DNA from: Myxococcales bacterium
GTDB lineage: Bacteria; Myxococcota_A; Polyangia; Haliangiales; Haliangiaceae
DNA: 64,000 bases
Direction: 5' to 3'
NCBI GenBank assembly: GCA_016707895.1
Contig: JADJGV010000002.1
Location: 335,695 to 399,694, forward strand
Below the pieces are notes generated by a model. It was given only the letters and a program-made list of their open reading frames with translations, was not told the origin of the DNA and searched no databases. A program made the translations under genes and the position numbers. Below, piece by piece: positions 13,251 to 59,443 of this stretch. Positions within the stretch are counted from its first letter, which is position 1. Every line of letters starts with the position of its first letter.

Positions 13251-14246
13251 TCACGCGAGGGCGAGGTCGGCGTCGTCGAGGCCTCGGAGCCAGGTGGCGG
13301 CGAGGTCGGTGGGGGCGGGGATGTACCAGCGCGGGCGGACGAGCGCGCCGGGCGGGTAGCTGGCGGTGATCGCCGCGGCGATCTCGTCGGTGTCGGCGGA
13401 GGCGAGCTTGCGCAGACGCTCGGAGGCGCGCTTGTAGTGGTCGCGGAAGGTGGCGTAGGCGGCGAGGAAGCGCGCGCGGACGCGGACGCAGAAGGCGTGG
13501 CACGCCGGTGCAGGCGACGGCTCGAGCTTGTTGAGGGGCGTCGCATCGGGATCCTCGGCGATCACGCGACCCGCGCCGAGGACGGCGGCGCCGGCATGCT
13601 CGGCCTCGATCTCGGCGACGAGGGCGGCGTGCTTGGCGCGGAGCGCGGCCGGAGTGAGGTCGGCCCAGATGGGCAGCGGGGTGAGCGTGATGGCGACGTC
13701 GTGCGCGAGCTCGGCGTCGGAGTGCGGCTCCGGGCGGCGGGCGTTGCGGCGGCGCGCGTCGAGCGAGCGGTAGACGGCGGGGATGGTCATGTCGCCGAGC
13801 AGCGCGGGCGTCGAGCAGGCGCCGGGCCAGTCGCGCGGCGAGGCGACGAGGTTGGACGTGGGGCCCTGGGCGAGGATGTAGCGGAGGCGATCGATCTGGG
13901 CGTCACCATCGAGGACGGCGATGACGCTGCCGCGGCGGCTCCAGAAGACGCCTTCGCGATCGCGGAGGTCGTTGAGTTGACGGGCGATGTTGCCGTGAAC
14001 GTAGTCGATGAAGAGCGGCAGCTGATCGGGATCGTGGTCGGCCGAGCAGAGGTAGTGGAGGTGGTTGGATTGGGCGTCGAAGGCGTAGAGGCGGACCGCG
14101 GTGTAGAGCGCGAGTGCCTTGCCGAAGACGCCGTCGATGATCGCGCGGCACGCGGGATCGGGGCGCAGCCAGAAGTGGCCGCCCAGCGTCCGGATCGTCA
14201 CCTCGTAGAGCAACTGCGCCACGTAGAACCGCTGTCGATGCGCCAT
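13251..14246 (-). CDS. IS200/IS605-family Y1 HUH transposase (COG1943, RayT-like), with a long C-terminal extension
   Basis: HuH motif SNHLHYL. Catalytic Tyr helix RLRYILAQGPTSNLVASPRDWP matching the RayT/IS200 pattern Y..NP..LV..P.DWP. Start is an internal ATG (MAHRQRFYVAQ…). The upstream part of ORF 13251..14504 lies in a low-GC non-coding region. Confidence 0.7.
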   Translation of the reverse strand: MAHRQRFYVAQLLYEVTIRTLGGHFWLRPDPACRAIIDGVFGKALALYTAVRLYAFDAQSNHLHYLCSADHDPDQLPLFIDYVHGNIARQLNDLRDREGVFWSRRGSVIAVLDGDAQIDRLRYILAQGPTSNLVASPRDWPGACSTPALLGDMTIPAVYRSLDARRRNARRPEPHSDAELAHDVAITLTPLPIWADLTPAALRAKHAALVAEIEAEHAGAAVLGAGRVIAEDPDATPLNKLEPSPAPACHAFCVRVRARFLAAYATFRDHYKRASERLRKLASADTDEIAAAITASYPPGALVRPRWYIPAPTDLAATWLRGLDDADLALA

Positions 14247-14362
14247 GTGCCACCCCGGTCGGCGCCCACCGCGGGCGCATGGCCGGGCTATCGACCAGGC
14301 CGCGCGGCGGTTGCGTGGTTCGCGCGGACGGTCATGAGATCGTCGCGGGCGCGCCCCATGAA

Positions 14363-14402
14363 CCCCCGATCCGGTTGGCCCCGATGCCCCGATCCGGTTG
14401 GC
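14363..14402. promoter_or_regulatory. two copies of CCCCGATCCGGTTGGC (tandem direct repeat, 6-nt gap) ~35 nt upstream of the histone-like gene
   Basis: Read directly. Lies between the divergent transposase and histone-like genes. Confidence 0.4.
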
Positions 14403-14436
14403 TGCAACCCGTTTCAGGGAGGCCGATTCCCAATGC

Positions 14437-14841
14437 ATGTTGGTCGACATGGAGGACGGAGACAGAGTAAAGGACGTGGCCGGCTCCGGCTTCGCGTACT
14501 TCATGGATGTCGTGACCGTGCTGGAGGTCCTGGAGGCCTTCGGGAAGCGAAGGCCGAAGTTGGAAGAGAAGCTCCGCCTGCTCAGCCACTACGCGGAAAA
14601 CGACGCGTACCCGGAGTGGGTGTTCGCGAAGGTGACCAAGGCCCCCAAGCGCGCCAAGCCGACCGAGCGCGCCAAGCCGACCAAGCGCGCCAAGCCTGCC
14701 AAGCGCGCCAAGCGCGCCGCCGAGCGCGAGGCCGCGAAGGCCACCAAGCCTACGAAGGCCACCAAGCCTACGAAGGCCACCAAGCCCTCCAAGCCCGCGA
14801 AGGCCACCAAGGCCAGGACCACCACGCCCCGGAAGCGCTAG
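14437..14841 (+). CDS. small DNA-binding-like protein with histone H1-like Lys/Ala/Pro-rich repetitive tail
   Basis: GGGAGG lies ~15 nt upstream of the ATG. Globular N-terminus, then KAPKRAKPTERAKPTKRAKPAKRAKRAA…ATKPTKATKPTKATKPSKPAKATKA. The antisense ORF 14332..15054 is the mirror image of these repeats. Confidence 0.55.
   Translation: MLVDMEDGDRVKDVAGSGFAYFMDVVTVLEVLEAFGKRRPKLEEKLRLLSHYAENDAYPEWVFAKVTKAPKRAKPTERAKPTKRAKPAKRAKRAAEREAAKATKPTKATKPTKATKPSKPAKATKARTTTPRKR
14643..14832 (+). repeat. in-frame coding tandem repeats (18-nt and 21-nt units) encoding the AKP/TKA tail
   Basis: GCGCCAAGCCGACC… and GCCACCAAGCCTACGAAG… units repeated in tandem within the CDS. Confidence 0.5.
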
Positions 14842-24079: not shown

Positions 24080-26590
<2,511 letters not shown>

Positions 26591-26608
<18 letters not shown>

Positions 26609-26636
26609 GGCGCGCGGCGGTTCCGATAGTATCCCG
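26591..26636. repeat. 46-bp repeat, copy 1: GGCGAGCGGATCGGCCATGGCGCGCGGCG(G)TTCCGATAGTATCCCG
   Basis: 45/46 identical to copy 2 at 33568..33613, same orientation. Contains the kinase start codon on the minus strand. Confidence 0.8.
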
Positions 26637-26663
26637 CCGGCTGGGTCGGGGCGGCGTGCGCCG

Positions 26664-27334
26664 TCATCCCACGCGCGCGAGCGAGACCAGGCCGCCCGCA
26701 AAGAGCTCGGGGAACCGGGCGCGCAGGCGGTCGCGATCGCGGTCGGCGTCGGCGACCCAGGCCGCCGGCACCTCGACTGTGCGTGTGGGGCGCGGCGCGT
26801 CGGCCGCGGGCCACCACGCCACGGCTAACGCGCCGTCGTCGGCGACGGCGTCGACGATCAGGCTCGAGCCCGCCGCGGCGAACTCGGGGGCGTTGGCCAG
26901 GAGGCGGGCCTTCACGCACTCGATCAGCGCGTCGTCGTGGCCGTGCTGCCACAGCACCAGCTTCTCCCGCAGCCCCTCGTAGCCGCGCACCAGGCGGACC
27001 CGGTTCGGCGCGAGGTGGGTGACCAGCGGCGAGCCGTGCGTAAAGCCGCGGGCCACGCCGTCGAACAGCGCGCGCTCGTGATCGCGCCAGGCCGGCCAGG
27101 CCGACGGCGCTAGCGCCATCACCCAGTGGCCGCGTTCGAGGTCGGTGTACAGGATCGACCGCGCGACCTCGATCCGCGCGCCGCACGCCTCGCACGCGAC
27201 CTGATGGAAGCGCCGGGCCAACACTGCCGCCCGCACCGCCGGCACCCGCGACCCGTGGATGCCGCGTGCCAGCTCGGCGCTGGTCGAGCCGTCGCAGTGC
27301 GGGCACGTCAGCGTGCGGATCTCCCAGGTCGACA

Positions 27335-27335: not shown

Positions 27336-29344
<2,009 letters not shown>

Positions 29345-29391
29345 CGCGCGCGACGGTACAGGATCGTGACCGGCGATGGTACGCTACCCGC

Positions 29392-58747: not shown

Positions 58748-58816
58748 TCACGCCAGCGCAGAGGGTTGGTCAGAACTCGGATCCCCGCGCACGATCTCAC
58801 GTATCGGGTGGGGGAC

Positions 58817-58863
58817 CCACGGGGGCGTGACCCCGTGGGGGAGGGTTTGTCGACAAACCCTCC
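58817..58863. terminator. two adjacent hairpins between convergent genes, including a perfect 24-bp palindrome GGAGGGTTTGTCGACAAACCCTCC
   Basis: CCACGGGG-gcgtga-CCCCGTGG, then the palindrome at 58840..58863, which overlaps the stop of the minus-strand gene. Could be a bidirectional terminator or a protein-binding site. Confidence 0.45.
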
Positions 58864-59216
58864 TAGTAGTCCAGCGCGGCGCGCAGGCCGTCGGCGGTGA
58901 AGCCGACCACCAGCGTGTCGCCCACGCGCACCGCCGGCGCGCGCAGGTTGCCGCTGGGGCCGATCACCAGCGCGCGCAGCGTCGCGTCGTCGGGCCGGTC
59001 GCGCGCCACGTCGATGGTGACGGTCTGCTTGCCCTTGGCCACGACCAGGCGGCGGGCCTGCCGCACCAGCGCCAGCGCGGCCGGCTCGGCGATCGGCGCC
59101 TTGTCGGCGCGCACCAGCTCGCGGATCTCGATCCCGTCTGTCGCAAGCAACTCTTGCGATCGTTTGCAGCTCGTTCAACCGTTGCGATGGAAGTACCAGT
59201 CGACTGCCTTGGGCAT
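58863..59216 (-). CDS. ArsC/Spx-family thiol-reductase-like protein with in-frame TGA at the first Cys of the CxxC motif (candidate selenoprotein, UxxC), or a nonsense-mutated pseudogene
   Basis: Minus-strand ATG near 59216, 13 sense codons, TGA, then the in-frame ORF 58863..59150: MPKAVDWYFHRNG-U-TSCKRSQELLATDGIEIRELV…. Compare B. subtilis Spx SPSC-TSC-RKA. Total 117 aa, matching the family size. A hairpin lies ~15 nt 3' of the TGA. Confidence 0.5.
59142..59160 (-). promoter_or_regulatory. SECIS-like hairpin (7-bp stem UCGCAAG/CUUGCGA, 5-nt loop AGUUG) ~15 nt downstream of the in-frame UGA
   Basis: Read on the minus strand. The loop contains GU. Spacing is consistent with published bacterial SECIS models. 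Confidence 0.35.
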
Positions 59217-59443
59217 GTGACACAGGTACCACGGCGACGGCATCCGCTGGCAACGCCTCGGCCGCGTGATCGAGTAGCCGCGATCACAGCTGCCTAGGAT
59301 CGGACGCGACCCGCGACCGGCCTGCCCAGTTCTGCGCAGGTGGCTGCGCGATCCTCCACGGGGGGCCCCCGGCGAAGCCGGTCCTGCGCCGGTCGCGCGC
59401 TGGCGCGACGGTTGCTACCGCCCGCGGTCAGGAGGACTGACCG

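Follow-up and report, generated by a model that had tools for sequence, protein, structure and literature searches.

Spx of Bacillus subtilis (1Z3E, 3GFK, 6GHB), an RNA-polymerase-binding redox regulator with a CxxC motif, is the best solved relative of the protein described here, by profile and by fold alike (Foldseek rank 1). The glutaredoxin-coupled arsenate reductase ArsC (PF03960, TIGR00014) belongs to the same superfamily and carries its N-terminal nucleophile at the same position. The motif of ArsC is CxxS, or UxxS in the selenocysteine (Sec) form known as 'Arsenate reductase, UxxS', whereas the protein encoded here has UxxC. The arsenate reductase of E. coli R773 has a catalytic cysteine and an Arg60/Arg94/Arg107 triad. 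YffB (PA3664, 1RW1) and the glutaredoxins, which share the thioredoxin-like fold and an active-site thiol at the N-terminus, are weaker matches (fold TM 0.58).

Selenoproteins of this type have been catalogued before. A 2006 list of selenoproteins in bacterial genomes already includes ArsC-like ones (PMC1794560), and the GOS selenoproteome of 2008, where the present family was first seen, kept 'Arsenate reductase (ArsC) 1, UxxS' apart from 'Arsenate reductase 2, cd03032, UxxC' (PMC2398784). An 'Arsenate reductase-like protein, UxxC' is listed in a 2022 review and again in a 2026 review, there with the NCBIfam model NF041106 (PMC13188914). The literature on Haliangium or Kofleria together with selenoproteins yielded nothing relevant.

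We analysed a 64-kb stretch of DNA (hereafter the window) from a Kofleriaceae-type myxobacterium. On the evidence of sequence comparison, its minus strand at 58863..59216 very probably encodes, in an intact and monocistronic gene, a selenoprotein of 117 residues that belongs to the NF041106 group. The features of the gene are as follows.

58863..59216, minus strand: entire coding region of the ArsC-like selenoprotein: 117 sense codons, Sec14 among them, then TAG
59214..59216, minus strand: ATG start codon; relatives begin at the same M-x-x-x-[VI]-D-W position
59175..59177, minus strand: in-frame UGA, read as Sec at residue 14, the first position of UxxC; Cys in 11 loci, TGA in 76
59166..59168, minus strand: TGC, Cys17, the resolving cysteine of U-T-S-C; a column invariant in family alignments A1 and A3 and aligned with C13 of Spx
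59141..59159, minus strand: bacterial SECIS hairpin, 7-bp stem UCGCAAG/CUUGCGA, loop AGUUG
58863..58865, minus strand: TAG stop

Translation of the minus strand from the ATG at 59216 gives MPKAVDWYFHRNG, the TGA (59177..59175) and then TSCKRSQELLATDG..., in a single frame through the TAG. The peptide directly after the TGA begins TSCKRSQ..., and the post-TGA peptide, TSCKRSQELLATDGIEIRELV..., ends in LDY before the TAG (58865..58863). The original prediction had placed a 117-residue protein on this strand, running from an ATG near 59216 through the in-frame TGA, and translation confirms that reading. Another in-frame ATG lies at 59241..59243, nine codons 5' of the accepted start (MPSPWYLCH-MPKAVDW). 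We take the ATG at 59216 as the start because relatives use the same position and the upstream ATG is unconserved among them; one locus of the 98%-identical relatives (L001) has a stop three codons 5' of the equivalent start.

The prediction had also held that ORF finders and standard pipelines would shorten the gene, which is what they do. The only entry in the ORF list is a TTG-initiated ORF of 95 aa at 58863..59150, and the GenBank product is exactly this 95-residue stump, 'hypothetical protein IPH44_22685 [Myxococcales bacterium]', deposited under a Kofleriaceae accession as well. Public records with the 95-residue 'hypothetical protein' are MBK7075108.1, MBK7192171.1 and MBP6846450.1.

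With Cys in place of the TGA in the query, the full-length protein matches NF041106 (ArsC_rel_Se_1) at 122.9 bits (E 7.9e-36), against a curated cutoff of 85 bits. The alignment spans the TGA: residues 5-109 correspond to positions 1-105 of the 107 in the model, and the residues ahead of the TGA to positions 1-9. UxxC stands at the same column in the family, and the C-terminal GP[ST]GNLRAP...VGF is common to the family and the window protein. The general Pfam models score below their gathering thresholds, ArsC (PF03960) with 13.9 bits (E 0.07; gathering score 24) and Glutaredoxin (PF00462) with 20 bits over residues 8-35 only (gathering score 22.9). Some homologues carry a precomputed PF03960 match.

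A search of ~5.8 billion proteins returned 177 relatives. The shorter ones among those fetched (22 fetched; 101-104 aa and one of 118 aa) all start with 'MSC...' or 'MTC...', one codon past the Sec column, and 11 of the 12 full-length homologues fetched (115-121 aa) have CxxC (...HR.[GNS]C..C...). NCBI names one fetched homologue 'ArsC family (seleno)protein'. The twelfth, a protein of 116 aa from a Logan contig (P0021), shows Arg in the Sec/Cys column (..DRRGRMTCKNAQ..), a residue that a TGA-to-CGA change could explain. With the window gene, a mis-annotated member is added to an already catalogued selenoprotein family, of which the existence, the UxxC motif and the Sec/Cys distribution were known.

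The comparison at the level of DNA covered 87 loci: 80 genome loci, the window itself and, from a relative with 98% identity, six metagenome contigs. The best genome match is a Kofleriaceae metagenome-assembled genome (MAG) with 75% identity. In contrast to the window gene with its Kofleriaceae-type myxobacterial host, the majority of the 80 NF041106-family genome loci recovered belong to Planctomycetota, Acidobacteriota and assorted other MAGs. The original prediction proposed looking at whether orthologues carry Cys or TGA at the motif column, and they do: the codon is TGA in 76 loci and TGC or TGT in 11, and the 13 N-terminal codons are conserved. The upstream peptide [IV]DW.YHR.G is kept in frame in every one of the 87 loci. 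Such a distribution at a single column reads as a classic Sec/Cys pair, which is the standard comparative criterion for selenoproteins. In three Sec-form orthologues in which the motif column lies ~40 nt into the match (L031, L050, L084), the motif is UxxS (UVSS, UTSS and UKTS), with Ser in place of the resolving Cys and with the TGA and the hairpin kept.

The 75%-identical Kofleriaceae orthologue (L007) differs from the window by two synonymous changes and one non-synonymous change across the 13 codons that precede the TGA, and its 5' intergenic DNA cannot be aligned with that of the window. The comparison points to purifying selection on the codons upstream of the TGA.

A hairpin with a 7-bp stem and a 5-nt loop (UCGCAAG-AGUUG-CUUGCGA), with GU in the loop, had been predicted 15 nt past the UGA and was found at 59159..59141. 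The distance from the UGA is 15 nt to the stem and 22 nt to the loop. The original prediction also held that its position and shape fit bacterial SECIS models, and the element falls within every consensus limit quoted in the 2026 review (PMC13188914), as listed here.

Apical loop: 3-9 nt in the model; 5 nt in the window element
Upper stem: 4-16 bp in the model; 7 bp in the window element
Loop G: in the first two loop positions in the model; G at position 2, then U, in the window element
UGA to loop: 16-37 nt in the model; 22 nt in the window element
[quoted passage not shown]

The hairpin is the centroid structure of the region. Folded alone it has a z score of -2.9, and 2 of 200 shuffles fold equally well; the surrounding 60-76 nt, at z +0.4 to +0.7, are no stabler than shuffles in this 73% G+C DNA. 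Single-sequence thermodynamics alone is unconvincing, but the comparative evidence lifts the hairpin above chance. We aligned 70 distinct Sec-form sequences in codon register and without gaps, and counted pairs between columns 19-25 and columns 31-37. Stem cells are paired in 83.1% of cases, compared with 74.8% in shuffles, none of which reached this value (0/500), and pairing drops to 25.7-54.9% when the partner is slid by 1-3 columns. Pair 21-35 covaries (GC 44, UA 11, CG 5, UG 4), and double-sided changes occupy 38 cells, with 18.7 expected from shuffles. Most members that seem unpaired form the hairpin all the same, in a register one base away (TTC-TTG-AGC). RNAalifold returned no consensus pairs on the ungapped alignment of the 70 sequences, probably because of the mixed (shifted) registers and the triloops. 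Rfam, run over the 64-kb window at gathering thresholds, gave no match at all, neither to the hairpin nor to a tRNA-Sec.

Most Sec-form members of the family share the SECIS codon register of the window gene, and all 51 Sec forms of the main register have GU in the apical loop. The window loop is AGUUG (5 nt), whereas the commoner form in the family is a closed GUU triloop; the difference arises from the replacement of Phe (TTY) by Leu (TTG). The hairpin is absent from the 11 Cys forms, and the mean local MFE over nt 16-41 is -9.9 kcal/mol in the 70 Sec forms and -3.7 kcal/mol in the 11 Cys forms (Mann-Whitney p 1.6e-7).

From these observations we infer a course of Sec insertion and a catalytic cycle, together with the kinds of substrate that would suit them. 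UGA14 would not be read as a stop during translation. The hairpin at 59159..59141 would act as a bacterial SECIS that recruits SelB-GTP-Sec-tRNA(Sec) to a ribosome paused on the UGA, and Sec would be inserted there. In the thioredoxin fold of the product, the active site U14-T-S-C17 sits where helix 1 begins and faces the conserved R92-A93-P94 loop. The product is most likely a thiol/selenol-based oxidoreductase, in which Sec14, by analogy with CxxC/UxxC oxidoreductases, may attack an oxidised substrate: a disulfide, simple or mixed, or an oxyanion, for instance arsenate. Cys17 would then resolve the adduct as a selenenylsulfide, which a cellular thiol system may re-reduce.

Profile and structure comparison place the protein in the ArsC/Spx/YffB superfamily. 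The family profile finds Spx in the PDB at E 4.6e-9 (positions 7-114), an ArsC-related protein (2M46) at 6e-8 and YffB (1RW1) at 2.7e-4. An AlphaFold2 model of a Cys homologue that is 43% identical to the window protein (P0026) has a pLDDT of 90.6. With this model as the Foldseek query, the first matches are Spx, ArsC-family proteins, YffB and glutaredoxins; Spx, 3GKX and 1RW1 rank at the top with probability 1.0, at TM values of only 0.50-0.58. The assignment to Spx/ArsC made in the original prediction holds at the superfamily level, and the profile and the predicted model make the protein a divergent member of the ArsC/Spx superfamily of thioredoxin-like proteins.

The TGA sits at the position of the Spx-type N-terminal redox Cys, as had been proposed: C10-T-S-C13 of B. 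subtilis Spx (C-TSC-RKA) aligns with U14-T-S-C17 of the window protein, so that the CxxC of Spx coincides with the U/CxxC column. The RRP proline loop of Spx aligns with RAP, and the ...VG[FY] strand aligns as well. Identity in the Foldseek alignments with Spx is ~15-20%, at TM 0.50-0.55, and Spx has 131 aa compared with 117 aa for the window protein. The likeness to Spx lies in the CxxC alignment and the fold only; binding to the C-terminal domain of the RNA polymerase alpha subunit and redox control of transcription are features of Spx. Strands 2 and 3 are joined in Spx and ArsC by an all-helical insert, whereas residues 44-84 of the P0026 model are predicted to form a helix, a beta-hairpin and a helix at that place.

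Sec occupies the place of the ArsC nucleophile in the window protein. In the alignment with Spx, R92 falls on the Arg of RRP, and it is nearly invariant in alignments A1 and A3. This Arg is presumably the counterpart of R94 in the E. coli ArsC triad. Equivalents of the other two triad arginines were not found among the conserved columns of A1 and A3. The Pro of R92-A93-P94 may be the cis-proline of the fold.

The gene is flanked by a convergent VOC/glyoxalase gene, a WYL-HTH regulator and an arylamine N-acetyltransferase. This arrangement is syntenic only within Kofleriaceae-type relatives, and the conserved neighbours gave no functional clue. Just past the stop codon lie two inverted repeats.

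58816..58863, minus strand: two G+C-rich inverted repeats just past the stop, between the convergent ArsC-like and VOC/glyoxalase genes
58840..58863, minus strand: perfect 24-nt palindrome GGAGGGTTTGTCGACAAACCCTCC, overlapping the G of the TAG
58816..58839, minus strand: 9-bp stem CCCACGGGG/CCCCGTGGG, read directly from the DNA

Scans for consensus promoters and terminators found nothing here; the terminator scan misses the repeats because they lack a T run. The repeats at 58816..58863 are possibly a terminator without a U-tract.

Several other features of the region were noted. A Peptidase_S26 gene (L001, 704..1576) separates the ArsC-like gene from the homologue of a 468-aa protein in the 98%-identical relatives; in the window there is just a 227-bp intergenic spacer in its place (59217..59443), which makes this an indel between close strains. 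Elsewhere on the minus strand of the window are an AAA ATPase (27338..29383), of which the best NCBIfam match, the anti-phage ATPase IteA, is far below cutoff, a 914-aa Ser/Thr kinase (24083..26824) and a weak REP-associated tyrosine transposase-like ORF (13254..14588).

We also searched for the Sec machinery and for other selenoprotein genes. NCBIfam scans found no selA, selB or selD among the 39 large high-GC3 ORFs of the window, and ARAGORN found no tRNA in its 64 kb, in a related locus that reaches 10 kb past the window (L093) or in all but one of a further 15 related loci. Among the genes of the 10 kb adjoining the window, none has a Sec-related Pfam family. In one locus from an Alcaligenaceae MAG (L012, 3842..3928), ARAGORN reports an unusually long tRNA-Gly(GCC) of 87 nt, ~500 nt downstream of the ArsC-like gene. 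A second selenoprotein candidate was not found in the window: a window scan for in-frame TGAs with coding-like GC3 both before and after them returned none with redox motifs. Contiguous ORFs in the same frame, considered as further selenoprotein genes, proved to be ordinary adjacent genes, such as uppS-cdsA.

Other explanations of the in-frame TGA have to be weighed against this evidence. A pseudogene or a sequencing artefact, in which TGC or TGT has mutated to or been miscalled as TGA, could draw on the possible frameshifts that the original prediction reported elsewhere in the window, and on the Sec machinery not being seen there. The caveat that a nonsense mutation or base-call error might be involved is answered by the four independent assemblies that carry the same TGA, the coding sequence being identical in GCA_020051655.1 and ERZ27275381, one nucleotide different in ERZ22158296 and seven nucleotides different in GCA_964269055.1. 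A base-call error or private nonsense mutation is effectively refuted by these assemblies. Since the TGA also recurs in the majority of the related loci, across several phyla, with selected codons on its 5' side and an intact, conserved SECIS on its 3' side, we consider decay or artefact highly improbable. A change of the genetic code throughout the genome (table 4 or 25), with UGA as a sense codon, has nothing in its favour beyond the in-frame TGA itself. The host is a myxobacterium of 73% G+C, and TGA ends 17 of the 25 well-supported ORFs of the window, including uppS directly before cdsA; this stop-codon usage refutes reassignment, to which we attach a practically negligible probability.

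Two further possibilities accept the sequence and the standard code. The functional product could be the 95-aa TTG ORF, with the upstream 13 codons as an untranslated leader or micro-ORF; gene callers and GenBank do give exactly this length, and in the close (98%) relatives a GTG directly after the TGA leads to calls of 102 aa. In the window, by contrast, the codon after the TGA is ACG, which is not a start codon, and according to the model a protein of 95 aa would be left without strand beta-1, without any of UxxC and without the initial third of helix 1. The residues ahead of the TGA are moreover conserved as protein across phyla and covered by the NF041106 model, and the Cys-form homologues are full length, so that a short product has very little to recommend it. 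Alternatively, UGA14 might be recoded to another residue, either to Cys via Sec-like machinery or to Trp or Cys by near-cognate read-through stimulated by the hairpin. In favour of this stands that selD and selA of the genome were not seen. The hairpin has SelB-type features, namely GU in a small apical loop and the 22-nt spacing, and the family is catalogued as Sec-containing. The loss of the hairpin in Cys-form genes is as expected if it serves Sec insertion, and we regard recoding to another amino acid as most unlikely. An intact gene for a 117-residue selenoprotein is the reading that we retain.

One wider proposal sets the NF041106 clade functionally apart from the arsenate reductases and from Spx, as a selenol/thiol oxidoreductase or redox sensor in its own right, with an alpha/beta insert where Spx and ArsC have a helical one, and takes its presence in the Kofleriaceae-type lineage as the mark of an unrecognised, actively maintained Sec trait there; we offer this as a speculation that is rather unlikely to hold.

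The main value of the finding is the correction of the annotation: the 95-residue hypothetical protein should give way to a selenoprotein of 117 residues, codon 14 being marked by a transl_except. The window gene also illustrates cleanly how a SECIS within the coding region persists in Sec forms and disappears from Cys forms. For the organisms themselves, the gene is present in a 73% G+C lineage of the Kofleriaceae type, with 98%-identical copies in many metagenome runs, and its sequence indicates that this Kofleriaceae-type myxobacterium would use selenocysteine.
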